From positions 1-61,890 of IMG/VR virus record IMGVR_UViG_3300043621_000039: DNA of 61,890 nt, one strand, 5' to 3'. Below the pieces are notes generated by a model, which saw only the letters and a list, made by a program, of their open reading frames with translations, was not told the origin of the DNA and did no database searches. Origin of the DNA: a virus (lineage: Duplodnaviria > Caudoviricetes). Position 1 is the stretch's first letter, and each line of letters starts with the position of its first letter. Below are positions 2,746 through 57,272 of the stretch, piece by piece. The position numbers and the translations under genes were made by a program.

Positions 2746-3092
2746 GCGACTACGAATGGATTCCCGCTCCTGAAACCAGGCGTTTGGGACAGGGCCGACT
2801 TCGGCTCAGCCCTGAGGAGGTCAAGTGGATCCAGCTCAAGTGGGAAAAGATCCGCAAGTCCCAGCAGATCGCTGACGAAGCCAGTAACCGCTGGAACCGT
2901 CTGAACGGCGAGATCAACCGCTGGATGGATGATACCGGCATCATCGATATCGTGCAGCGGACTTCTACCAAGTCCAAATCCCTCCCGCTCAGGGATGCGC
3001 TGGAGACCGGTAAGTGGCATGCGGCGGAGTCCCAGCGTCACATCGATGACCTGAACCTCTTCCTGCGGCTGAAAGAGTTGGAGGTTCTGTGA
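2742..3092 (+). CDS. Hypothetical protein
   Basis: GTGA overlaps with both neighbours; AAGGAG RBS. Confidence 0.7.
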   Translation: MSDYEWIPAPETRRLGQGRLRLSPEEVKWIQLKWEKIRKSQQIADEASNRWNRLNGEINRWMDDTGIIDIVQRTSTKSKSLPLRDALETGKWHAAESQRHIDDLNLFLRLKELEVL

Positions 3093-3640
3093 TGTGGAAC
3101 GATCGGATGATCCTCGATGCGTTGAAGGGTGACCCGCCAATCGTCTACACGCCGGATCTGGTGGAGCAGCGCTACGGCCCCATCATGGAGCGCCAGGTCC
3201 AGCCGTGCTCTCTGGACGTCCGGATCGGTGAGGAGTTCATCCATCACCCGTCCGGCGAGCGGGTAGAGCTGGATGAGTTCTTCGCCTTCACGCTGCTGCC
3301 CGGTGAGTGCGTCCTGGCTAGCGTCCTGGAGCGGATGAACCTGCCGTCGCACGTCGCGGCGCGGATCGAGGGCAAGTCAACCTGGGCAAGGGAATTCCTC
3401 ACGGTCCACTCCGCCGGATTCATTGATGCGGGGTTCTGCGGCGACATCACGCTGGAGCTCAAGAACGATGGCCGGAAGGTCCTGGTTCTCAAGCCGGGTG
3501 ACGTCATCGCTCAGCTGTCGTTTCTGAACCTAGACGCACCGGCCGAGCGCCCGTACGGTAGTCCCGGGCTGGACTCCCACTATCAGGGTCAGGAGGGGGC
3601 AACGCCGTCATGGCGATCCGTATCAAGCGTTGGCGATTGA
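3089..3640 (+). CDS. dcd: dCTP deaminase
   Basis: VQPCSLDVRIG, RIEGKSTWAR, AGFIDAGFCGDITLEL, YQGQ. Confidence 0.93.
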   Translation: MMWNDRMILDALKGDPPIVYTPDLVEQRYGPIMERQVQPCSLDVRIGEEFIHHPSGERVELDEFFAFTLLPGECVLASVLERMNLPSHVAARIEGKSTWAREFLTVHSAGFIDAGFCGDITLELKNDGRKVLVLKPGDVIAQLSFLNLDAPAERPYGSPGLDSHYQGQEGATPSWRSVSSVGD

Positions 3641-3801
3641 TGAAGATGAACCACCATACCTGGGTTGAGGTTTCGCTGACACCGCAGGAGGGGAAGCGGC
3701 ACTACTGGACCCGTAAGGGAGCGCTCGACCAGCAACTGCGGCTGAACGCCAGTATGCTGGCCTGCAACCAGAAGTGGCGTTACTTCGTCCGGCTGCGATG
3801 A
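3640..3801 (+). CDS. Small hypothetical protein
   Basis: TGATG coupling to dcd. Confidence 0.45.
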   Translation: MKMNHHTWVEVSLTPQEGKRHYWTRKGALDQQLRLNASMLACNQKWRYFVRLR

Positions 3802-4055
3802 TCTGCCGGCTGTTCCAAAGATGTTGCGACTGCGGCGGATGGCTCTGTCTCGTCTGGATATTTGGCGATGAAGAGCGCGAGCACCGGAGGTTCTGCGGCA
3901 AATGAAATGCGAACACTGCGGCAAGGCCCTGGTTGAGGTCGATAACCCGATGCGTCGTGAGGTCCGCCATCGGCGCGGTGAAGAAGTCAGTTGCCCGGAG
4001 TGGAGGCGGGTGAACGCTATATCGGCAGATTCATCATCAGAGTAGTCTTCAGGTC

Positions 4056-4451
4056 ATGGCGACGAATGATGCTGAATACCAAAGACGTCACAAGAAGGTT
4101 CGCGGGCTGCGAGGTTTGGCCAATCAGCATAATTGTCAATGCGGCAAACGCGCCTGTGACTGGTCGCATATCCATGGGACTAATCCGGAGGAGGTCGAGA
4201 ACTATCAGCCGATGTGCCGCTCATGCCACCAGAAGTATGACTTGCCGGATGAGGTCAAGGCGCGCCAGTTAGCGGAGCGGCAAAGGGTTGAGTCGACTCC
4301 GGTATTCAAGGGCTGGAGTCCGGAGCGCAGAGAGGCTCAACGGCAGAGGATGCTAAAGAAGTGGTCCGATCCCGAAGCGAAAGCGCGGCAGTCAGAGCGA
4401 GCCTCGCGCGACAAGCCCTGGACGGGCAGATGGGGGGTGCCCGGTGATTGA
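4056..4451 (+). CDS. HNH endonuclease-like protein with NUMOD3-like C-terminus
   Basis: CQCGKRACDWSH...ENYQPMCRSCHQKYD; C-terminal SPERREAQ/SDPEAKARQS. Confidence 0.7.
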   Translation: MATNDAEYQRRHKKVRGLRGLANQHNCQCGKRACDWSHIHGTNPEEVENYQPMCRSCHQKYDLPDEVKARQLAERQRVESTPVFKGWSPERREAQRQRMLKKWSDPEAKARQSERASRDKPWTGRWGVPGD

Positions 4452-4458
4452 GAAGCAT

Positions 4459-5368
4459 ATGAAGTTTGTGAGCATCCATCACCACAATTAGCACGTTCTC
4501 GTATCTCGATGCGCTCGGTACGCCTGCCGAGCATGCGCAGATTGCTGCCGAATACGGCATGACGGCTCTCGCCGAGACAAACCATGGCAACACCTCCGGG
4601 CACGTACAGCACGAGAAGGCCTGTAACCGAGCGGGTATCAAGCCACTCTTCGGTCTGGAGGCCTACACTGCGACCGGCGAGCAGGAGGCGCGGAAGTTCC
4701 ACCAGACGATCCTGGCGATGAACCAGGACGGCCTGGCGAATCTCTATCGGATGGTGAGCGAATCCTGGAAGGCGTTCTACAAATGGCCAACGGTGACAGG
4801 GAAGAACTTCGCCCAGTACCAGGAAGGTCTCATTGCGACATCGGGCTGTGCAGATTCGCTACTCAGCTGCAGCTTACTTGGTGGGAAATCAATCCCACCG
4901 GAAGACGCCAGTTGGGAGCGTGCCCTGGATGTGGCAGGCCGCTTCAAGGACCTGATGGGGGACCGGTACTACCTGGAGTGCCAGATCTTCCCGGAGCTGC
5001 CCCGTGCCCTGGAGCTCAATGCCTCTTGGGAGAGGATGGGCCGGGAATTGGGTGTCCCGCTCGTTGCCACGTGCGATGTCCATACCCCTGAGCCTGGACT
5101 GCATAAGGTCCGCGCTACCCTACACGCAGCCGGGCGAGGCTCCGCAACGATCGCCCAACAAATGGAGGGCTGGGAGTATGAGGTCCCGGACTACATACCA
5201 CGCTCCGATGCGGAGGTTTATGAGCGGCTGTGTCGTGCCGGGCTATCGCCATCTGCGGCGGCAGAGGCGTGCCGGAACACGGCCGCCATTGCGGAGAGAT
5301 GCAACGTAGTCCTGCCCAAGGCTCCCCGTTTCGAGTACCCCGCAACCGCAGAGGAGATGAAGTGGTGA
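4459..5368 (+). CDS. dnaE: DnaE PHP domain as a separate gene; reading frame broken at 4486-4491
   Basis: MKFVSIHHH-N-stop, then STFSYLDALGTP in the +1 frame; downstream ETNHG, GLEAY, TSGC, YYLE, ATCDVH. Confidence 0.85.
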
Positions 5369-5571
5369 AGTATCTGGCATGGGCTCCAAGGGTCGAGGGC
5401 CGACCGTACAGCGAAAAGGTAGATGACGCGGTCCGGGAGTCGGCTGGATTCCTGCTGGATTCCAAGTATCCGTTGCCCGGATGGGTCGCCGGTAACCGCT
5501 TGGGCGGCCAGCTGACGATGAGCAGCGAGCGCTTTCCTGGATCCGTAGCGGTCTGGGTCTGGGAGGCCTGA
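5365..5571 (+). CDS. Small hypothetical protein between the dnaE halves
   Basis: GTGA overlap; GAGGAG upstream. Confidence 0.5.
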   Translation: MKYLAWAPRVEGRPYSEKVDDAVRESAGFLLDSKYPLPGWVAGNRLGGQLTMSSERFPGSVAVWVWEA

Positions 5572-5664
5572 ATGATCAAGGAAGAGAGACAACTGTTGGC
5601 GTATATGGCTTTCCTCTTCCTGTTGGCGCTGGGTTGCTTCATCCTAGCAGGGCTGATAGCATGA
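5572..5664 (+). CDS. 30-aa single-TM membrane protein between the dnaE halves
   Basis: MIKEERQLLAYMAFLFLLALGCFILAGLIA; GGAGG RBS; ATGA overlap with the next gene. Confidence 0.5.
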   Translation: MIKEERQLLAYMAFLFLLALGCFILAGLIA

Positions 5665-7955
5665 GCACGCCGATCGAGCCGGTTGAACTCCTCTGGGCGT
5701 GGCTGCGGGAGGGCTGGAAGTACCGAGTCAGCCAGGGGTGGGACCCGGCTCGCAACGGCGTAGAGAACTACGTGCAGCAGATCAACGCTGAGATGGATCT
5801 CATTGTTCCCAAGGGATTCGTCTCGTACTTCCTCATGGTGTCGGATGGGATCCGCTGGGCGAAGGATCACGGCATTGCGGTCGGTCCGGGTCGTGGTTCG
5901 TCCGCCGCGTCGGTCTGCTGCTGGCTACTTCGTATCACCGAGCCAGACCCACTCGACTTCCCGCTGACGGACTTCTCCCGCTTCATCGACCCCACCCGTG
6001 AGGACCTGCCTGACATCGACGTGGACTTTGAGGATGAGCGCCGGCACGAGGTCCGCGCTTACTTTGAGGCCAAGTACGGCAGGGATTACGTTGGCAACAT
6101 TGGCACCTTCACCAAGTACAAGGGGAAGAACTCCCTGAAGGACGTCCAGGTGGTGCACCGGGCGGAGCAGGGTCCGGCGTTCCGCTCTGACATTGAGCGG
6201 CTGAAGGGGATGCTGGTGGAGCGCTCGGGCGGTGACTCCCGCGCGGACGCGGCCCTGATGGATACTATCCAGATGTTCGAGGGTGCACAGGAGATCTTCG
6301 CCAAATACCCAGAAGAGATTGGGATTGCGGTCACGCTGGAGGGCAACTACCGCTCGATGTCGACGCACTCCGCCGGTGTCGTCGTCACAACGCAGCCGAT
6401 CGCTGAGATCACCGCGCAGTACACACGGGTCGTGAAGGGCCGCGAGATCACTGCGGTTGCGGTCGACAAGTATGATGCCGAGTACCTCAACCTGATGAAG
6501 ATGGATCTGCTTGGGCTGACTACTATGGGGATGCTGGCGAAGGCCCTGCGGTTCGCCGGGATGACGCTGGAGGAACTGTACCGGCTCCCGCTCGATGACC
6601 CGGCGACGATCGCTGCATTCCACGCCAATGACGTGATCGGCATCTTCCAGTTCGAAGGTCGTGCCACCCGGCTGGTGGGTCGAGATTTGCGGCCTGACAA
6701 CATATTCGAGCTGATCGACGTGAACGCGCTCTCCCGGCCTGGACCGCTCTTCTCCGGTACCACAGCCGAGTACATCAAGGTGAAGCACGGTGAGATGGAG
6801 CCTTCCCCGCTGCACCCGGTGATCGATAAGATTGCTGAGCAGACCAAGGGCCAGATCATCTACCAGGAGCAGATTCTCCATGCCCTCGCACAGTTTGGTG
6901 GTCTCCCGGTCCGGAAGGTGCACGACATCCGCCGGATCATCTCCAAAAAACTGGGCGAGGCTGCCTTCAACTCCTCCTTCGAAGCGTTCGCGGAAGGTGC
7001 CGCGTCGCTGCATGGTGCGTCGCGTGAGCTATCGCAGGAGGTCTGGGGCCGGGTCGTGACGTCCGCGTCCTATGCGTTCGTCTACTCGCACTCGCTGGCC
7101 TACACCATCATCGGGTACTGGTCGCAGTACATGAAAGTCAATCACCCCACCGCTTTCTACGCAGCACAGCTCTCCAAGATCAAGCAGGATAAGTGGCCCA
7201 AGCTGATCCGCGACGCGGAGGCGCACGGGGTGCGGGTCGAGGGCGTGGACCTCAAGCACTCCGGCGATACCTGGGCGCCCACGCCGGACGGCCGTGTGGT
7301 GGCAGGGTTCCTGCAGCTGGAGGGCGTAGGACCGGCGCTCTCCGTCACCATCATGGAGGACCGCGAAGCGCGCGGGCCGTTCCGGAACGCCCAGGACCTG
7401 TTGCGGGTCAAGGGAATCGGGGAGGCCAAGCTAGCCAAGATGATCCCGCAGATCGAGGGGGATGACCCGTTCGGGCTGTTGCGGGTCAAACTATCCCTGG
7501 ACTCCGTCCGCGAGGCAATCGCCAACCGGTCGATCCCGCTCCCGGTTCCGAACGCGGACAGCGACAAGATCCTGGACGCCAAGGCTGACAGCACGATCTA
7601 CTTCGTGGGGATGGTAAAGCTCAAGGAATACAAGGATGTCCTGGAGGATGAGCGCTCCCGGACCGGTGACGATATGGAGACGATCCGCGCTCGCGTCAAG
7701 CGTCCGGACCTGGCGACCTCCTGCGTGCTGCACTCCTATGACGACGGTGGGGAGGATGTGTACGTCCGTATCACCCGGTATGACTTCCCCAAGTACCGCA
7801 AGGCTCTGGAAGAGATCCGGGAGGACCTGGACGTGATCTGGGTGGAGGCGCGGAAGTCCTCCGGTGGGTTCGGAGCCTCCATCTACGTCAAGCGGCTGAT
7901 TGTAATCGATCCAGAGGATGACGATGAGGAGAACGAAGATGACGATGGTACCTAG
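5661..7955 (+). CDS. dnaE: DNA polymerase III alpha (DnaE) catalytic part
   Basis: VGPGRGSSAAS, PDIDVDF, HSAGVV, KMDLLGL, GIFQFE, YQEQI, YAFVYSHS. Confidence 0.96.
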   Translation: MSTPIEPVELLWAWLREGWKYRVSQGWDPARNGVENYVQQINAEMDLIVPKGFVSYFLMVSDGIRWAKDHGIAVGPGRGSSAASVCCWLLRITEPDPLDFPLTDFSRFIDPTREDLPDIDVDFEDERRHEVRAYFEAKYGRDYVGNIGTFTKYKGKNSLKDVQVVHRAEQGPAFRSDIERLKGMLVERSGGDSRADAALMDTIQMFEGAQEIFAKYPEEIGIAVTLEGNYRSMSTHSAGVVVTTQPIAEITAQYTRVVKGREITAVAVDKYDAEYLNLMKMDLLGLTTMGMLAKALRFAGMTLEELYRLPLDDPATIAAFHANDVIGIFQFEGRATRLVGRDLRPDNIFELIDVNALSRPGPLFSGTTAEYIKVKHGEMEPSPLHPVIDKIAEQTKGQIIYQEQILHALAQFGGLPVRKVHDIRRIISKKLGEAAFNSSFEAFAEGAASLHGASRELSQEVWGRVVTSASYAFVYSHSLAYTIIGYWSQYMKVNHPTAFYAAQLSKIKQDKWPKLIRDAEAHGVRVEGVDLKHSGDTWAPTPDGRVVAGFLQLEGVGPALSVTIMEDREARGPFRNAQDLLRVKGIGEAKLAKMIPQIEGDDPFGLLRVKLSLDSVREAIANRSIPLPVPNADSDKILDAKADSTIYFVGMVKLKEYKDVLEDERSRTGDDMETIRARVKRPDLATSCVLHSYDDGGEDVYVRITRYDFPKYRKALEEIREDLDVIWVEARKSSGGFGASIYVKRLIVIDPEDDDEENEDDDGT

Positions 7956-7956
7956 G

Positions 7957-8163
7957 ATGAGTGACGAGAACTGGGACCTGACACCGTTGCAGCACCTGGA
8001 TCGAGCCGATGAGTTGCTGGAGGTGATACCGGTCGCCGGTGACGTCATCGAGCACCATCTGCAGGTGATCTACCTCGCAGCTCGACACTCCACACTCGCG
8101 GTTGTGAAGTACGGCCGGAGCACTATCGGCAGTAGTTCTGGATCGGATAACCTCGACACCTAA
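7957..8163 (+). CDS. Hypothetical protein
   Basis: ORF filling the gap in the operon. Confidence 0.5.
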   Translation: MSDENWDLTPLQHLDRADELLEVIPVAGDVIEHHLQVIYLAARHSTLAVVKYGRSTIGSSSGSDNLDT

Positions 8164-8174
8164 GGAGGGACCAA

Positions 8175-8723
8175 ATGGCAAGATTTCCCGATCGTCGGCA
8201 TTGGGACGGTAGAACTGTTCACGTCACCACCAATACCTATGCCGACCGCCGGAGCGTGGAAGCCGGCATGACGCCGGAGACTGCAGGAGCGCTGGCAAAC
8301 CTGCTGCGTTCCCATACCGGTCTGGCGAACCTGCTGAGCCCGTTGCCGGATGAACTGCAGGAGCTGATGGTGGCGCTCGACTACGTCATGGTGGCCGACC
8401 CGTCATCGGTCGCCGCGCACCGGCGCATGGAGGCCTCAAAGGGCATGGATCCCGCTGAGTCCAATCCTCCGGCGCTTCCGCGACCGTTACGGGATACCGA
8501 CACCATCCGGACGATTCCGCACCGCTACGTGGAAGCTAGCCGGGCGGGGCACTGTGGTCACGAACTTGAGAATGGTTCGCTGTGCTCGGCTCGACCGCAG
8601 GATCACGAGGGGTACGAGGAACCGACCGACCCAGGGCTGCGGGCGCTGCGGAAGCGGCGGACGACGGAGGCCGGGCAACGGCTCGGCACCCGATACGGAC
8701 CAACAGGAGAGTTCTATGGGTAA
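8175..8723 (+). CDS. Hypothetical protein
   Basis: Strong RBS TAAGGAGG. Confidence 0.7.
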   Translation: MARFPDRRHWDGRTVHVTTNTYADRRSVEAGMTPETAGALANLLRSHTGLANLLSPLPDELQELMVALDYVMVADPSSVAAHRRMEASKGMDPAESNPPALPRPLRDTDTIRTIPHRYVEASRAGHCGHELENGSLCSARPQDHEGYEEPTDPGLRALRKRRTTEAGQRLGTRYGPTGEFYG

Positions 8724-12720: not shown

Positions 12721-12909
12721 ATGACTCAAACCATTACAGCGCCCGGGAAGCCGGGTAGACCGGCTATCGGTCCCAAGGCGCAGACCCATATTCCGCAGGA
12801 TGAGATGGACTTCCTGCTACAGGAAGCTAGGTCGTTGGAGGTCCCATATGCGGATGTGCTACGGGAGGTCATCGCCGCAGGCATCGCTGCGCGGCGGGGT
12901 GGAGCGTGA
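12721..12909 (+). CDS. Ribbon-helix-helix DNA-binding protein
   Basis: GRPAIG, a beta strand and two helices (YADVLREVI); coupled to the primase gene. Confidence 0.65.
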   Translation: MTQTITAPGKPGRPAIGPKAQTHIPQDEMDFLLQEARSLEVPYADVLREVIAAGIAARRGGA

Positions 12910-15374
12910 CGCGTCGGCACCTCCATTCGGTTCAGCCGTTGTCGGAGGTCCAGCCATACGCGTTCGCCGCTACGCACTACTTCAACGCCGGTTGGAGTCC
13001 TTTGCCGCTGCCACCCGGCGAGAAGTCATGGCCCCCAACGGGATACACCGGCGGTAAGGGTCGCTCGGCGGAGCCGGAAAAGGTGCAGCACTGGATCCGG
13101 ACCAAGCCCAACGGGAACATCGCGCTGCGGATGCCGCCGAACCTGCTGGGGATTGACGTCGATGCCTACTCAGGGAAGGATGGCGCCGCGACGCTCGCCG
13201 CTGCAGAGGCAGATTGGGGAGAGCTACCGCCGACCTGGCGATCAACCTCAAGGACGGATGGGGTTTCAGGCATTCGGCTGTTCCGGGTACCGGAGGGACT
13301 GCTGTGGCCAGGCAAGCTGCCGCATGGCGGAGGGATCGAGCTATGCCGCTGGGACCACCGCTATGTGATCGTCGCACCGTCGATCCACGACAAGACCGGA
13401 GACCAGTATCACTGGTTCAATCCGTTGGGGGAGCAGACTACCGGCGCTGCTGTCGAGAATGGCGAGTGGGAGTTTCCCGCGCTCGATGAGCTAGCAACGC
13501 TGCCGGAGGCATGGGTTGCCGGTCTCACCGCTGGTAAGAAGTGGATCGAGCGGGAAGAGGAGGACCTGGATCCGGGCGAGGTAGCCCAGTGGATCAAGGA
13601 CCGTCCAGATGGTGATATGTGCTCCAAGATGGAGCGCACGCTGGACGCCTGGATGGCGAAGATCTCGGCCGCCGGAGAGGACGGAGGCGCGCACGACGCT
13701 GCGCGGGACGGTGCCTGGTCTGTATTGCGTGATGCGGCGGCAGGGCACTCCGGTGTGCAGCACGCGCTCCGGAAGATCATGCTAGCGCACAAGGAGGCGC
13801 TCAGGCTCCGGCGTCCAGAGTCCTCCGGTTCCGAGTGGGCCTCGATGAAAGCGCGTGGGGTCCGGAAGGTTGCTGCGGAAGGTCCCACCGATGACGATGA
13901 CCCCTGTGAGATGGGGGAGGTCTCGCGTCCAGCCGCGCGTCGCAATCGCGGTTCGGATGGGATGGACTTCGAGCGGGACGATATCGGCAACGGGCAACGG
14001 TTCGCCCTGCAGTGGCGGGATGAGGTCCGCTGGGTGCCGGCCTACGCGTGTTGGTATATCTGGAGAGACCGGGTATGGGAGCCGGACACCACTGAAGAGA
14101 TCGTCCGGATGGCGACCAAGACGGTACGGGGGATGCTGGCTGAGGCCCAGTTCATCGAGGATCTCAAGGAGCGCGCCGCGTTCCGGAAGTTCGTCCGGTC
14201 CTCCTCCAACCGGGGGAAGCTGCTTGCCATGCTAGATATGGCGAAGGGCAACAAGGGGATCACGGTACCGGCGGAGACCTTCGATACCGATACCGGTCAG
14301 CTGGTGTGTCCTAACGGGACTGTAGAACTCCCACTCGAATTCTCCGGAGGCGCGGTGCGCCGGGTGCGTTCGGTCCAGGAGCACTACAACACGATCGAGA
14401 CTGGAACAGCGTACGTGGAGGGCGTGCGGTTCCCAGAGTGGGAGAAGTTCCTGGCCAAGTTCCAGCCGGATGAGGAGGTCCGTGCCTGGCTGCAGAAGCT
14501 GGCAGGGTACTCGCTGCTAGGGCGTAATCCGCGCCGACTTATGGTGGTATGCATGGGAGAAACCTCCACCGGTAAGACCACCTTCGCAGAGGCGGTCTCG
14601 GGCGCTCTGGGGGCGTATGCGGGTTCCGCCAACATGACGATCTTCCGCGACAACCAGGACGAGAGGCCACGTCCAGACCTGATCCGGGTGCTACCGAAGC
14701 GGTTCGTCTACGCGGAGGAGGCCTCGCGGAGCTGGCACCTGCACCCAGACCAGATCAAGCGGCTGACCGGCGGGGCGCCGGTGACCGCGCGGACCTTGCA
14801 GGCCAAGGTCTACGTGGATATGGTGCCGCGCTTCACGCCCTGGCTGCTGACGAACGCCGCGCCAACTATCGAGGGGGCTGACGCAGCGCTCTGGCGACGG
14901 ATGGTGGTGGTGCCGTTTGATGTCGAGATCCCCAAAACGGAGGAGGATGCGCGGTTCGCCGCGTCGCTCGCGACGGGGGAGGGTCGGCAGGCCGTCCTCG
15001 CGTGGCTCGTGGAGGGGTATCAGGCCTACCTTGCGGATCCGGACTCGGTGCAGGAGATCCCGATGCGGGCCGTGGCAGCTAACCGGCGGTTCCGCTCGGA
15101 GGTGTCGGACCTGGCGCAGTGCCTGGAGGACATGTGCGAATTCGGGGATGATGAGTACCGCGTGGAGCCGGCAAAGCTCTATCGCGCCTACAAGATGTGG
15201 TGCGATGAGAATGGGGTCGCCGGGAGGGATGTGCTGACGTCTACGAAGATGGGGAGGGAGTTGACGGGGCGTGGGCATCAGAAGAAAACTTGGAAGATCG
15301 ACGGGCGGCCGATCTGGTTCAGAACGGGGCTCCGATTGCGGCCTGATTGGGCCCGCGTTGTAGGCGCGGGGTAG
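12906..15374 (+). CDS. Bifunctional primase-polymerase fused to a D5-like SF3 helicase
   Basis: GIDVD, APSIH; D5_N (DIGNGQRF, NGTVEL); Walker A GETSTGKT; IKRLTGG; LWRRM. Confidence 0.92.
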   Translation: MTRRHLHSVQPLSEVQPYAFAATHYFNAGWSPLPLPPGEKSWPPTGYTGGKGRSAEPEKVQHWIRTKPNGNIALRMPPNLLGIDVDAYSGKDGAATLAAAEADWGELPPTWRSTSRTDGVSGIRLFRVPEGLLWPGKLPHGGGIELCRWDHRYVIVAPSIHDKTGDQYHWFNPLGEQTTGAAVENGEWEFPALDELATLPEAWVAGLTAGKKWIEREEEDLDPGEVAQWIKDRPDGDMCSKMERTLDAWMAKISAAGEDGGAHDAARDGAWSVLRDAAAGHSGVQHALRKIMLAHKEALRLRRPESSGSEWASMKARGVRKVAAEGPTDDDDPCEMGEVSRPAARRNRGSDGMDFERDDIGNGQRFALQWRDEVRWVPAYACWYIWRDRVWEPDTTEEIVRMATKTVRGMLAEAQFIEDLKERAAFRKFVRSSSNRGKLLAMLDMAKGNKGITVPAETFDTDTGQLVCPNGTVELPLEFSGGAVRRVRSVQEHYNTIETGTAYVEGVRFPEWEKFLAKFQPDEEVRAWLQKLAGYSLLGRNPRRLMVVCMGETSTGKTTFAEAVSGALGAYAGSANMTIFRDNQDERPRPDLIRVLPKRFVYAEEASRSWHLHPDQIKRLTGGAPVTARTLQAKVYVDMVPRFTPWLLTNAAPTIEGADAALWRRMVVVPFDVEIPKTEEDARFAASLATGEGRQAVLAWLVEGYQAYLADPDSVQEIPMRAVAANRRFRSEVSDLAQCLEDMCEFGDDEYRVEPAKLYRAYKMWCDENGVAGRDVLTSTKMGRELTGRGHQKKTWKIDGRPIWFRTGLRLRPDWARVVGAG

Positions 15375-52723: not shown

Positions 52724-52915
52724 ATGAGCCCGGACCGAAAGCGTCGGCACCGCATCCGGCGCGGATATATGAACCAGCCCGCTGAAGGCCACTACGCGGA
52801 CTGCGTTCCGTGCGGTCACACCGGAGGTCTCTTCAAGACCCGGGACCAGGCTACGTCCCAATACGAGGAGCACAAGCGGACCGGTAAGTCGCTGCGGGAC
52901 GGGGAGTGGAAATGA
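52724..52915 (+). CDS. Small zinc-finger-like protein
   Basis: CVPC...H; leader motif upstream. Confidence 0.55.
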   Translation: MSPDRKRRHRIRRGYMNQPAEGHYADCVPCGHTGGLFKTRDQATSQYEEHKRTGKSLRDGEWK

Positions 52916-54861
52916 CGGTCCGGGTGGAGCGCGGAGGGAACCGCATCCTGCTTGCTAGCGAGGGGCCCACACCAGGCCTCTCCTCCTCCATTCCTGGCGC
53001 GTACTTCCGGAAGGATAAGCTTTGGAGCCTTCCGTTGGATCTCAGCACCTGCTTCCTGCTCCGCGAGCGGTTCGGATCCCGACTGGTGATCGGTCCGCTT
53101 CTGACCTCGTGGGCCAAGGCCGAGAAGGCTAAGCGCGCCAGCCTTGAGTCCACGGCCGGGGCTGCCGATGCGGATCTGCGGGTACTCCCTCAGGTGGCTC
53201 CCCGCCTCCACGCAGCCATGGGTACGCGGACCTATCAGCGCGCCGCAGCACGGTTCATCGCTGACGCGCTCGGGCGTGACGGCCGGAGGCGTGCCCTGGT
53301 GGCGGACACGGTCGGCCTGGGCAAGACCGCTGAGGCCATGGCTGGGATCCTGGAGTCCGGCGTCCCAGGTCCGTACCTGGTGGTCTGCCCGATGGGCGCG
53401 GTGGAGCTGACCTGGCGACCGGAGATCACCCGCTGGCTTGGCCCGGACGCGGAGGTCATCACGCTCCCGGTCGGGAAGGCCAAACGGGATGAAGTGCTCC
53501 GCGAGCTGAGTGTGCAGGAACCGGCTTCGCTCCAACGTACGTGGGTTATCGTGCATCCGGCCATCGTCCGTACCCAGACGTGGTGGATCTGCGCTCTCTG
53601 TGGCGATCAGACCAAGTACACGGTTCGGCCTACGGCTGAGTTGGACTGCGGCCACGAGAAGGATCGTGGAACCAAGGTCAAGCACGAGCACTCGTTCCCC
53701 CATCTTTTCGGGATGGAGTGGGGCGCACTCGTCGCGGATGAGTCGGACCAGATCCTGATCCGCAAGACCGGTACGCCGAACCTGCAGCGACGCGGTATGG
53801 AGATGCTGCGAGATCTGGTGCGGCTTGATGGGATCCGGCTGGCGATGAGCGGTACGCCGTTCCGCTCCAAGCCGCATCAGATCTGGAGCACGCTCAACTG
53901 GCTCGATCCGGTCGAGTGGGGCGGCAAGTGGCGCTTCATCCAGAAGTACTGGAACACCGGAGGCTACTCCGGTTATGAGATCATCAAGGATGGCTTCATT
54001 GAGGAGCGCGAGCCGATGATGCTTGATGAGCTGCGGTCTGTGATGATCCGGCGGACCCGTGAAGAGGTCCGGGCAGACCTGCCTGAAAAGCTCTATCCCT
54101 CCAATGTCGATCCGGAGACCTCCGGTCTGACCGCAGGTATCTACCTGCCGATGAACGCCAAGCAGCGCAAGGCCTATGACTCCATCGTCAAGGATGGCGA
54201 GGCAACCATCGACGGCGGAACCCTTAGCCCGCTTGGGGTCCTGGCTGAGATGACCCGAATGAAGCAGTTTGCCAGTGCCGAAGGTATCCTGGTGAACGGG
54301 GAGTTCCAGCCGATCGCTGCCGGCAACAAGTATGACTGGATCCTGGAGTTCTTGGAGCAGCTGGGGTTCCCGGATCGCCCGGCAACTAAGCTGGTGATTG
54401 CTAGCCAGTTCACCAAGCTACTTAACGTTTTCCGTGACGGGGTTGGTAAGGCGTTCAACCACTATATCCAGCAGGGATCAATCACCGGCGAGCAGACCGG
54501 GTTGGCCCGTAAGAAGTTGGTTGACAGGTTTGAAGATGTGGACTCCGATCTCTCGTTGCTGTGGATCAACACCAAGGCCGGAGGCTCCGCCATCACGCTG
54601 GACGCTGCCGACTCGATGGTGGTGATCGATGAGACCTATGTGGATGACGAGCAGCAGCAGCTTGAGGGGCGGATCGATAACCGCAACCCAGAGCGGAAGA
54701 TCGTTCCCAGGTCCTACTACTACCTGCGGTCCAGCGACTCGATCGAAGAGCTGATTGCAGTCCAGAACGCACAAGCGAAGGCTCGCGGGCAGCGGATGCT
54801 AGACGGAGCCTCCATCGCCAAGCTGGCCCGCGAAGGAAAGTTGCAGAAGGGCAAGCGATGA
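52912..54861 (+). CDS. SNF2-family helicase
   Basis: ADTVGLGKT, VADESD, SGTP, MIRRTR, AGGSAITL, QLEGRIDNR. Confidence 0.9.
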   Translation: MTVRVERGGNRILLASEGPTPGLSSSIPGAYFRKDKLWSLPLDLSTCFLLRERFGSRLVIGPLLTSWAKAEKAKRASLESTAGAADADLRVLPQVAPRLHAAMGTRTYQRAAARFIADALGRDGRRRALVADTVGLGKTAEAMAGILESGVPGPYLVVCPMGAVELTWRPEITRWLGPDAEVITLPVGKAKRDEVLRELSVQEPASLQRTWVIVHPAIVRTQTWWICALCGDQTKYTVRPTAELDCGHEKDRGTKVKHEHSFPHLFGMEWGALVADESDQILIRKTGTPNLQRRGMEMLRDLVRLDGIRLAMSGTPFRSKPHQIWSTLNWLDPVEWGGKWRFIQKYWNTGGYSGYEIIKDGFIEEREPMMLDELRSVMIRRTREEVRADLPEKLYPSNVDPETSGLTAGIYLPMNAKQRKAYDSIVKDGEATIDGGTLSPLGVLAEMTRMKQFASAEGILVNGEFQPIAAGNKYDWILEFLEQLGFPDRPATKLVIASQFTKLLNVFRDGVGKAFNHYIQQGSITGEQTGLARKKLVDRFEDVDSDLSLLWINTKAGGSAITLDAADSMVVIDETYVDDEQQQLEGRIDNRNPERKIVPRSYYYLRSSDSIEELIAVQNAQAKARGQRMLDGASIAKLAREGKLQKGKR

Positions 54862-55810: not shown

Positions 55811-56059
55811 ATGCACCGCCACGCCGAACCGCTACCACTCCTCACCGCCCTACCGCATATCGGGCCGTTGGAGGAGTTCTACATCACCCTGCCCGAACTC
55901 CCGGCGCACGAGGTGGTGTTGCAGCACGTTAGCTCCAACGCTCCCCAGCGAACCGACCCGCGTTGGGCCCGAGCGGTGGCCATACTCGGCGGACTGCTCC
56001 TGATTGGAGCAGGGGTGTTCCTCGCGGCGATCGGCGCGTGGATGGAGTTCAGGCTATGA
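55811..56059 (+). CDS. Small membrane protein
   Basis: Leader motif; C-terminal TM helix. Confidence 0.6.
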   Translation: MHRHAEPLPLLTALPHIGPLEEFYITLPELPAHEVVLQHVSSNAPQRTDPRWARAVAILGGLLLIGAGVFLAAIGAWMEFRL

Positions 56060-56144
56060 GCGCGGTGCTGAACTTCCTGGGAATCGTCTTGTTGGGGATC
56101 TCCCTGACTGTGGGCGTCATCGCCATCATCCGTGCGGTGCTGAA

Positions 56145-57272
56145 ATGAGCCTGCCGATCCTGCGGACCTCCGAGCGGAAGGCCTTCAAGCGCTGCCAGCG
56201 ACGCTGGTGGTGGGGCTACAGGGAGGGCTACGTTCCGGTTGGTACGGAGTCGACTCCGCTGTGGTTCGGTACCGGCATCCACATCGCACTGGCTGAGTGG
56301 TACCTGCCGGGCGTAGCGCGGGGACCGCATCCGGCAGAGACCTTTGAGGCCTTCGCCAAGGACACCATGCGATCTGTGAAGATGGCGAGCGCCACTGAAG
56401 AGCGCGTTGCGGAGTACGCGGACGGTGCGGAGCTTGGCGTCAAGTTGATGGATCTCTACGTCAAGGAGTACGGCAAGGACTCCTCCTGGCACTTCATCCA
56501 GGCCGAGAAAACGTTCAGCATCGCAGTCCCCTGGCCGGATAACACTCGGCAGACCGCCTATGTGGTGGACGAGCAGTCCGGCACCATGGTGGAGTACAAA
56601 GGGACCTATGACGGCGTCTATCGGGACCTAGTGGACGGCCGCATCAAGCTGCTGGAAACCAAGAGCGCCAAGGCGATTCAGACTGGGCACCTGGCGATCG
56701 ATGACCAGGCCGGCAGCTACTGGGCCGTGGCTACTGCATCGCTCCGCAGCGAAGGCCTCATCAAGCCGGATGAGTCGATCGCAGAGATCAACTACAACTT
56801 CGTTCGCAAGGCGCTACCGGATGAGCGACCGAAGGATCCGCAGGGCTACGCTACCAACAAGCCTGTCAAGCTGGATTATGGTACCGTGCTTGGATTTGAG
56901 CCAGGCCCGGCGCTGAACAAGATGACCATACCCAAGCTAGAAGAGTTGGCCCGCTCGCGGGGACTCGTGGTGCTAGGCGAACGATCGAAGGTCCAACCGC
57001 CTCCGATCTTCGAGCGCTTCCCGGTGCATCGGACCTCTGCGGAGCGTGTCACGCAGCTCCGGCGGATCCAGTCGGAAGCGGTCCAGATGCAGCTGATCCG
57101 TGACGGGGTCATCGAGATGACCAAGAGCCCAACCCGGGACTGCAATTGGGATTGCGGTTACTACGGGGTCTGTGAGTTGGAGGAGAGACAGGGCGACTGG
57201 AAGGAGTTGGCCCGGGTATCGATGCGGCGTCAGGACCCTTACGCCGATCACCGCAAGTCAGCTGAGGAGTAA
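56145..57272 (+). CDS. RecB/Cas4-like PD-(D/E)XK exonuclease
   Basis: SERKAFKRC, GTGIH, GTYD, LLETKS, Q...Y, CNWDCGYYGVC. Confidence 0.85.
   Translation: MSLPILRTSERKAFKRCQRRWWWGYREGYVPVGTESTPLWFGTGIHIALAEWYLPGVARGPHPAETFEAFAKDTMRSVKMASATEERVAEYADGAELGVKLMDLYVKEYGKDSSWHFIQAEKTFSIAVPWPDNTRQTAYVVDEQSGTMVEYKGTYDGVYRDLVDGRIKLLETKSAKAIQTGHLAIDDQAGSYWAVATASLRSEGLIKPDESIAEINYNFVRKALPDERPKDPQGYATNKPVKLDYGTVLGFEPGPALNKMTIPKLEELARSRGLVVLGERSKVQPPPIFERFPVHRTSAERVTQLRRIQSEAVQMQLIRDGVIEMTKSPTRDCNWDCGYYGVCELEERQGDWKELARVSMRRQDPYADHRKSAEE

Follow-up and report, generated by a model that had tools for sequence, protein, structure and literature searches.

The interrupted PHP gene

The window analysed here is an IMG/VR virus record (IMGVR_UViG_3300043621_000039; Duplodnaviria, Caudoviricetes) that is complete at 61,890 bp, has direct terminal repeats and originates from a soil metagenome assembly. 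Position numbers are those of this window of 61,890 nt. Its gene for the PHP domain of the DNA polymerase DnaE is cut into a short leader and a long body by four extra bases, and an HNH-family open reading frame (ORF) lies just upstream. The insertion is real, recurrent in other phages, tied to HNH genes, sharply bounded and compatible with phage viability. Compared loci carry L-numbers and are uncultured IMG/VR loci unless named otherwise. The features of the locus are as follows:

4056..4451, + strand: free-standing HNH-family endonuclease ORF, 131 amino acids plus stop, ending 7 nt before the leader ATG
4459..4491, + strand: leader mini-ORF, consisting of ATG 4459, nine further codons and TAG 4489-4491, reading MKFVSIHHHN and then stop; it carries the HxH metal ligands
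4487..4489, + strand: ATT in the body frame, sharing one base with the TAG; candidate re-initiation codon
4488..4491, + strand: the four extra nt, TTAG from alignment with relatives, also writable as AATT 4486-4489
4490..5368, + strand: PHP-domain body in the +1 frame relative to the leader, 292 codons plus stop 5366-5368, starting STFSYLDALG
4559..4561, + strand: ATG, the earliest canonical start of the body frame; a protein begun at this codon would lose 23 more residues, including the motif-I Asp

The original prediction, made from the letters of the DNA alone, held that four extra bases disrupt the frame within the first PHP metal-binding motif. The locus bears this out: the frame opens at ATG 4459, closes at TAG 4489-4491 and continues in the +1 frame. 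It was also correct that an ORF call from 4559 leaves out motif I and that the other PHP motifs are intact, the remaining conserved Asp/His/Glu/Cys motif residues being retained in the body on alignment with relatives. The leader is not a chance ORF, because its ten-codon peptide MKFVSIHHHN matches the N-termini of relatives (VKFVSIHHHN in L004-L006). The body matches Pfam PHP (PF02811) with an E-value of 1.3e-28 and 100.9 bits (cut-off 26.4) over profile positions 6-162 of 164. The match begins at position 6, and therefore only the first five profile positions, including HxH, are absent from the body.

The metal site of PHP domains is built from HxH, the motif-I Asp, and a later His, Glu, His, Cys, Asp and His. 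In the window, HxH lies on the 10-codon leader and all of the others lie on the body. No single polypeptide holds the complete set, which is reached only when leader and body are summed.

The placement of the extra bases is ambiguous. They can be written as AATT 4486-4489, ATTA, TTAG 4488-4491 or TAGC. The closest intact relatives, L004-L006, read His-His-His-Asn-Thr-Phe-Ser with Asn as AAC, and for that reason TTAG inserted within an AAC codon is the most economical description. The number of extra bases given in the original prediction thus stands, while their identity as AATT is one option among several and not the favoured one. On the same most economical description, the ancestral motif would be HHHNTFS, as in L004-L006, in place of the HHHSTFS that had been restored from the window alone.

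Intact and interrupted relatives

Close relatives of the locus are few. A megablast search of positions 4300-8000 against GenBank phages gave no match, and an exact-pattern IMG/VR scan for the site, with or without the four bases, found nothing. GenBank phages (792 records) include distant relatives only, all below 60% protein identity. Uncultured relatives reach 62-85% identity. Eight of these are without the four bases (L004, L005, L006, L008, L011, L014 and L015 in alignment A2, and L009 in A1), and they read H-H/x-H, then N, G, C, S or T, then T-F-S.

Two relatives are interrupted. L013 carries the identical four bases at the identical place, with a PHP gene 81% identical and an upstream ORF 60% identical to those of the window. 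In L007 an insertion of the same letters, also 4 nt long, is found about 120 nt downstream, within the D-H-G-N motif, and again a homologous ORF lies upstream.

In a wider IMG/VR set, the best 80 of 255 matches taken with search patterns that cannot find alleles broken in motif II, 79 of 80 loci have an uninterrupted N-terminus. The exception is L090 (IMGVR_UViG_3300037258_000038, ~1990-2000), in which a 7-nt insertion places an in-frame TAG just before the motif-I Asp. It has no HNH gene within 2 kb upstream and may be a case of a lost endonuclease. Closer relatives and the wider 80 together, with duplicates counted once, give 88 distinct uncultured loci, and the PHP start is uninterrupted in 84 of them.

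The upstream HNH-family ORF

The HNH-family ORF just upstream, which travels with the insertion, was not mentioned in the original prediction. The product of ORF 4056-4451 matches phrog_4160, a family of unknown function, at E 1.2e-14, and gives weak matches to the HNH families phrog_1571 (7.9e-4) and phrog_333 (5e-3). The ORF and its homologues (7-12 aligned) share an invariant C-x-C ... H ... C-x-x-C-H pattern. An AF2 model (pLDDT 85) has a beta-beta-alpha core. Its top fold matches are HNH domains, those of Cas5-HNH and the phage GVE2 HNH protein, at weak scores (Foldseek E 0.23; VIA Z 4.9/4.8/4.8).

The ORF is 50% identical to gp81 of the Mycobacterium phage Leopard, which is placed identically, as is the L013 homologue. 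A single-protein IMG/VR search with the ORF found no relative; a later profile search succeeded. A profile built from the three upstream ORFs of the window, L013 and L007 found the family upstream of PHP only at those three loci, and it also matched L089 and L053, where the homologue lies at the PHP/polymerase junction. An HNH-family profile search returned 80 IMG/VR loci, 10 of which adjoin a PHP gene. The HNH gene lies downstream of PHP in L111, L112 and L125. Two copies of the family occur at separate places on single contigs in IMGVR_UViG_3300043313_000495 (L134, L147) and IMGVR_UViG_3300047160_001195 (L111, L129).

A catalogue of short insertions in PHP genes

In all, 11 insertion types of 2-9 nt were found in 17 genomes, nine of which are cultured Mycobacterium or Gordonia phages. 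All 11 types fall within the coding DNA of PHP metal-binding motifs I and II, at three spots:

Spot after HxH+1: window and L013, 4 nt; Leopard, 5 nt; L110, 2 nt; L109, 6 nt
Spot after S-x-F/Y: Aikoy, 5 nt; Wojtek and DoobyDoo, 4 nt; Ranch, Patos, NorManre, Xenia2 and Erutan, 9 nt; L090, 7 nt
Spot between D-H-G and N: L007, 4 nt; L123, 4 or 7 nt; L143, 6 nt

An HNH gene lies immediately upstream in 15 of the 17 genomes, in which endonuclease and short insertion in the neighbour's conserved coding DNA are inherited as a unit. The exceptions are DoobyDoo, which has only a 3' remnant, and L090, which has none. Two HNH families stand at PHP insertions, phrog_4160 and HNH_3/phrog_826. In the first PHP survey a phrog_4160 ORF was upstream of none of the loci with an intact start. 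The insertion places an in-frame TAG or TGA first in 8 of the 11 types. Uncultured carriers that came from the HNH-family profile search are:

L134: HNH gene upstream of PHP, on the same contig as L007
L110: HNH gene upstream of PHP; 2 nt after HHHS; frameshift with no stop nearby
L109: HNH gene upstream of PHP; 6 nt in frame, giving H-H-L-H-H
L123: HNH gene upstream of PHP; 4 or 7 nt at D-H-G; ATG in the body frame
L143: HNH gene upstream of PHP; 6 nt in frame with TGA, at D-H-G

Cultured phages supply near-identical genomes with and without the HNH gene at a fixed slot. Leopard gp81, found by tblastn with the window ORF, sits directly upstream of the PHP gene, which reads MEYVSLHHHS, then TAG, and enters the PHP frame again after a 5-nt insertion. 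Around the slot, identity among Onyinye, Leopard and Aikoy is 99%. The start in Onyinye, which lacks an HNH gene, is uninterrupted and reads MEYVSLHHHSTFSYGDGY. Aikoy holds a different HNH gene (Pfam HNH_3, phrog_826) in the slot used by that of Leopard. Its 5-nt insertion begins with TGA, lies four codons beyond that of Leopard, and has a body-frame TTG overlapping the TGA.

The same pattern is found in Gordonia phages. An HNH gene is present in 6 of about 30 Lambo-like phages (Wojtek, Ranch, Patos, NorManre, Erutan and Xenia2), and the start is intact in Lambo, the sole HNH-free member that was read. Upstream of PHP, Wojtek carries a phrog_4160/NUMOD3 ORF that lacks annotation, and its 4-nt insertion has TGA first. 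DoobyDoo keeps the insertion of Wojtek, its HNH ORF being reduced to a 3' tail. Xenia2, Ranch, Patos, NorManre and Erutan carry an HNH gene like that of Aikoy together with an in-frame 9-nt insertion, TAG-GTG-GCC. The HNH gene is thus sporadically present or absent at a fixed slot in near-identical genomes, both in the Onyinye, Leopard and Aikoy group and in the Lambo-like phages.

Deposited annotations start the DnaE coding sequence downstream of the break in ON108643 (Leopard gp82), OL455890 (Wojtek gp72), PQ362665 (DoobyDoo gp78) and PP725409 (Xenia2 gp80), and the leader and its metal motif are for this reason unannotated. Leopard gp82 is annotated from a GTG 47 nt past the TAG. The HNH-like ORF of Wojtek, at positions 3408-3866 of locus L099, has no feature in OL455890.

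Divergence ends at the insertion

Four comparisons of cultured phages show where carriers and their intact partners differ:

Leopard versus Onyinye: leader, 8 of 30 nt differ, 7 codons synonymous, 0 amino-acid changes; next 300 nt, 100% identical
Aikoy versus Onyinye: leader, 14 of 42 nt differ, 10 codons synonymous, 0 amino-acid changes; next 300 nt, 99.3% identical
Ranch versus Lambo: leader, 6 of 39 nt differ, 4 codons synonymous, 0 amino-acid changes; next 300 nt, 98% identical
Wojtek versus Lambo: leader, 8 of 42 nt differ, 6 codons synonymous, 1 amino-acid change; next 300 nt, 96.7% identical

Summed over the four, 27 synonymous codon changes stand against 1 replacement in leaders of 10-14 codons. 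Because divergence concentrates in the leader codons, what distinguishes these otherwise near-identical phages is a unit of HNH gene, re-coded leader and insertion, whose end coincides exactly with the insertion. The HNH genes of Xenia2 and Ranch, which share the 9-nt insertion, are 76-89% identical; a 100-nt window over the HNH end, leader and insertion is 97% identical, and identity is 73% immediately after.

The window and L013 share derived leader codons to just beyond the insertion. The PHP bodies group otherwise: that of the window is nearest L004 and L007, and that of L013 nearest L005 and L006. At the level of sequence, a shared leader with discordant body affinities is a patchy, homing-like distribution.

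Selection on the PHP gene was estimated from the ratio of nonsynonymous to synonymous divergence (dN/dS). The ratio is 0.04-0.11 in every pair, with dS saturated; the window body against its relatives gives 0.065-0.104, and window against L013 gives 0.081. For Xenia2 against Ranch, which retain the remaining motif residues, it is 0.078 in PHP (dS 1.08) and 0.071 in the polymerase part. By this measure PHP constraint appears not to be relaxed in lineages that share an insertion. Private changes at otherwise invariant columns were also counted, in PHP (301 columns) versus polymerase (574): 6 versus 4 in the window, 3 versus 3 in L013 and 3 versus 17 in L007. The six of the window include an Asp-to-Asn change in the T-D-H-G motif, where all nine aligned relatives have Asp:

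4580..4582, + strand: AAC (Asn) in the T-D-H-G motif

A second target gene

Homologues from the same HNH-family IMG/VR set also lie upstream of C5 DNA-methylase genes. L162/L163, L181 and L186 have 5-nt insertions with TAG or TGA first, directly after the Ile codon of the F-x-G-I-G-G motif (motif I), and these leave leaders of 13-25 codons. Pfam confirms the methylase in L162, L181 and L186, with a match that begins at profile position 10; in the intact L184 it begins at position 2. L186 has a TTG over the TGA, and L162 and L181 are without a restart codon. The spot used by these insertions holds 6 extra nt, in frame, in L188. In L177 the HNH gene lies upstream of a C5 methylase with a frameshift near the F-x-G-I-G-G motif. 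As read from these sequences, HNH-linked stop-first insertions are not peculiar to PHP.

Authenticity of the four bases

Samples were compared as assembled contigs over 3500-8500; no RNA sample is among the sequencing runs listed for the phage. The Logan assembly of run X1 gives one 61,793-nt contig of depth 17.6, with 0 differing letters and 0 gaps over this region. X1 is the probable source run and thus provides a second assembler, not a second sample. Run X2 belongs to another study and has the phage at 99% identity or more in 16 of 23 pieces. Its bin 4335-4501 has a mean depth of 3.96 and no indel row, and no listed piece is shown bridging 4486-4491, which makes its support for the insertion suggestive.

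Run X3, a freshwater metagenome, yields two 151-nt contigs identical to the window, at 3931-4081 and 4101-4251, which do not reach the site. They span the 5' half of the HNH gene and a small ORF upstream of it. This run leaves almost all of the remainder of 3500-8500 without coverage, and the signal is too slight to interpret.

Fate of the interrupted protein

A start-like codon in the body frame lies on or beside the stop in 6 of the 10 interrupting types. The Ranch type has GTG, Aikoy has TTG, L007 and L123 have ATG, and both the window/L013 type and the Wojtek type, which includes DoobyDoo, have ATT. In the Ranch type, DnaE is a fused 1102-amino-acid ORF interrupted by the 9-nt TAG-GTG-GCC. 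The polymerase can be started only at that GTG, and therefore restart after the leader must work in those viable phages. In the window the body may restart at ATT 4487, one base of which is shared with the TAG; of all parts of the account this is the weakest.

Whether restarted at ATT 4487 or at ATG 4559, the body would be without HxH ligands in cis. A tentative proposal is that the leader peptide (10-14 residues; MKFVSIHHHN in the window), made separately, docks as the first beta-strand of the PHP barrel and gives its two His ligands in trans; we regard this as rather unlikely. It would explain why the leader peptide survives saturating synonymous change and why selection on PHP is as strong as on the polymerase, and these two observations favour it over a loss of proofreading. 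If true, the enzyme would be a naturally two-piece metallo-exonuclease produced by a 4-nt scar, and the leader would be the smallest known fragment of a gene in pieces.

Three other explanations of the arrangement were examined and set aside. For genome-wide recoding, the pattern of T-TAG followed by a long +1 ORF is matched by 4489 alone on the + strand and by a single unrelated position on the - strand. For translational bypassing, the window and Leopard have no matched take-off and landing codons in a usable register. For fill-in duplication of a staggered cut, the site has no 4-nt tandem duplication.

A proposed origin and its alternatives

We lean towards the view that the four bases are the self-immunity scar of a mobile HNH cassette, with PHP split into a leader and a restarted body. 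The cassette would consist of the HNH gene (4056-4451) and its own synonymously re-coded first ten PHP codons (4459-4488), the four bases being its right-hand end. Conserved motif-I DNA would be the recognition or cleavage site of the nuclease, and breaking that site would shield the carrier genome from its own enzyme. Genomes with an intact site would be cut and then repaired from the carrier, the cassette thereby being copied in. The cost would be a PHP frame split into a 10-codon leader ending in TAG and a 292-codon body, and the body would probably arise by termination-reinitiation at ATT 4487, with ATG 4559 as the fallback. Deduced from comparison of genomes, the cleavage, immunity, homing and restart are putative, and so is the state of proofreading.

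Several observations weigh against this cassette origin. The sharp boundary is seen in cultured phages only, the window being without a close intact relative. The link is not absolute, as L166 and L161 have an HNH gene upstream and an uninterrupted PHP. The window ORF has no Pfam match, and a PDB sequence search with the HNH profile gave zinc-ribbon-like chance matches only; its assignment as an HNH nuclease, by motif, context, weak PHROG matches and a weak modelled fold (Z <5), is itself a weak one. Restart is not general, because a start-like codon near the break is missing from Leopard, L110, L090 and L143, 4 of the 10 interrupting types, and in the window ATT is a poor start with no Shine-Dalgarno sequence before it. 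The low dN/dS fits a long-resident insertion and repeated recent invasion of intact genes alike and cannot separate the two. The private PHP changes hint at relaxed constraint, a suggestion that applies to the window only and is not significant.

The same cassette origin is also compatible with a different outcome, in which the insertion knocks PHP out, the phage has no PHP proofreading (being a mutator or reliant on its host) and homing drive keeps the damaged allele. The natural mutator allele named in the original prediction is possible in this form. We consider such a knock-out unlikely, though it has evidence of its own: the four restart-less types include Leopard, which is viable in culture, and the methylase counterparts L162 and L181 are restart-less too; the window PHP is a separate gene, whose loss leaves the polymerase unaffected; and the in-frame insertions of L188 and L109 look as though the frame was healed later. 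The restart-less types, the viability of Leopard, and the Asp-to-Asn and other private changes of the window all favour lost proofreading over ligands supplied in trans. A knock-out does not account for the conservation of the leader peptide, with its 27 synonymous changes to 1 replacement, for a PHP dN/dS as low as that of the polymerase where the insertion is shared, or for the retention of every remaining ligand residue. Phages with a fused DnaE must restart past the stop, and a Pfam scan found no separate DnaQ-like exonuclease among the 57 ORFs of the window.

The stop-stimulated +1 frameshift of the original prediction would act at AAU-UAG-C, where a slow UAG would yield full-length PHP with one extra Ser and perhaps tune the amount of the proofreading subunit. 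As in prfB-type frameshifting, an in-frame stop followed by C stands at the shift site, exactly at the break. The heptamer is the same in L013, a one-base step gives the product MKFVSIHHHNSTFSYLD..., and insertions of 3n+1 nt occur in L007, L123, the Wojtek type, L090 and the window type. Unlike prfB, the site has no slippery P-site codon and no upstream Shine-Dalgarno-like stimulator. The P-site tRNA cannot re-pair in +1 (AAU to AUU in the window and L013, GGU to GUU in L007, CAA to AAU in L090), and ARAGORN finds 0 tRNA genes in the window. The pattern fits a single + strand site in the window, and the extra residue would fall inside the catalytic motif. Offsets at homologous sites vary among cassettes (2, 4, 5, 6, 7 and 9 nt), so that there is no single shared +1 signal, and those of 2, 5, 6 and 9 nt (Leopard, Aikoy, L110, L109, L143 and the Ranch type) are not correctable by a +1 step. 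Programmed frameshifting is therefore improbable. An ordinary spontaneous frameshift, unrelated to the neighbouring ORF and leaving a decaying pseudogene, is very unlikely. It would suit the intact start of 84 of 88 uncultured loci and the few unusual PHP substitutions of the window, but the same insertion occurs in the diverged L013, the 11 types fall at three motif-coding spots with an HNH gene directly upstream in 15 of 17 genomes and a stop first in 8 of 11 types, and no body has a further frameshift or stop. Intact relatives, together with the absence of a trans-frame peptide, had been proposed as the mark of a simple mutation; most are indeed intact, and the change is instead a recurrent one linked to HNH genes. 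An assembly or sequencing artefact can practically be dismissed. The window is a metagenome assembly compared at contig level, but a second assembler agrees, the unrelated assembly of L013 has the identical insertion and finished genomes of cultured phages have its equivalents. To our knowledge, a 4-nt non-repeat insertion is not a usual error type.

The PHP/polymerase junction and neighbouring genes

Two further features lie downstream of the PHP body:

5230..5571, + strand: small conserved ORF at the PHP/polymerase junction, with ...FPGSxxVWxWE at its C-terminus; start codon provisional
5634..7955, + strand: DnaE polymerase core, a separate gene (Pfam DNA_pol3_alpha 2e-59, finger 1.9e-33, HHH)

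The PHP/polymerase split is shared with the Arthrobacter phage Wollypog (gp56/gp59); in the Nocardia phage P3.1 the two form a single fused 1067-amino-acid protein. HNH genes stand at this junction in several loci, of the window's family in L089, L053, L111, L112 and L125 and of another family in L001 (Wollypog gp58), which suggests that the split itself was made by an endonuclease. The junction of L013 holds a NUMOD-type endonuclease. ORFs equivalent to 5230-5571 are found in L004, L005, L006, L007 and L011, and some relatives have two. Elsewhere the window encodes a replication/nucleotide module (2170-2742, 3089-3637, 12906-15371, 52906-54858 and 56004-57269) comprising UDG-family, dCTP deaminase-like, primase-polymerase/D5 helicase, SNF2 helicase and PD-(D/E)XK nuclease proteins.

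Comparison with known systems

The nearest likeness is the mobA/gene 60 system of phage T4. The insert of T4 gene 60 disrupts the MobA site and shields the cassette from its own HNH endonuclease; it is a coding gap of 50 nt that begins with a stop codon (Bonocora et al. 2011, cited in PMC5009743; bioRxiv 10.1101/2022.08.31.505936). In systems of this type, the endonuclease is sometimes lost or swapped while the insertion stays (bioRxiv 10.1101/2022.08.31.505936; PMC5009743). The two cases share a free-standing HNH gene followed closely by a short insertion in highly conserved coding DNA of the neighbouring gene, towards its 5' end; an insertion that starts with an in-frame stop; a polymorphic region flanking the site; and decay or exchange of the endonuclease with the insertion kept, here in DoobyDoo, in L090 and in the use of two HNH families. 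They differ in that the insertions described here are of 2-9 nt in place of 50 nt, with no matched take-off and landing codons and no bypassing. The HNH gene lies upstream of the whole target gene and does not split it, and the targets are the DnaE PHP domain and C5 methylases of actinobacteriophages, known from sequence alone.

Homing endonucleases also yield genes in pieces, such as nrdA of the Aeromonas phage Aeh1 with MobE and gp39/gp60 of T4 (bioRxiv 10.1101/2022.08.31.505936). As in those cases, a conserved enzyme gene is cut into two ORFs that jointly cover the intact protein, and the downstream piece gains one or two N-terminal residues after its new start (Ranch type, Aikoy and L007). 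The DnaE PHP/polymerase split with an HNH gene at the junction (Wollypog, L089, L053, L111, L112 and L125) would be a standard case. The 5' site differs in that the upstream piece is short, at 10-42 residues, and the two pieces are not separated by the endonuclease. Pairing of a 10-residue leader with its partner, putative here, would be unusual.

The ShiLan element is an HNH endonuclease hidden, out of frame, within actinophage DNA methylase genes (Arsenault et al. 2025, PMC11855218). It too is an actinobacteriophage HNH homing element aimed at conserved genes, including methylases. Its HNH ORF lies inside the host ORF, whose frame stays open, whereas here the HNH gene lies outside and a tiny, usually stop-bearing insertion breaks the frame. 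No description of HNH-linked micro-insertions in DnaE PHP genes was found in the open-access PMC/bioRxiv literature.

Significance

The DnaE starts deposited for Leopard, Wojtek, DoobyDoo and Xenia2 point to a systematic annotation error. Nine cultured phages, whose hosts are non-pathogenic, carry such insertions, and near-identical intact partners exist in Onyinye (for Leopard and Aikoy) and Lambo (for Ranch and Wojtek). If the proposed origin is true, homing endonucleases can protect themselves with insertions of a few bases in DNA that encodes catalytic motifs, at the cost of cutting an enzyme gene. The element would then be a minimal relative of the T4 gene 60/mobA cassette, present in at least two target families, DnaE PHP and C5 methylase. 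The finding would bear on the rescue of broken genes by termination-reinitiation at non-canonical codons, on whether the PHP domains of phage DnaE proteins really proofread and how dispensable proofreading is, and on selfish elements that drive mutator alleles through phage populations.

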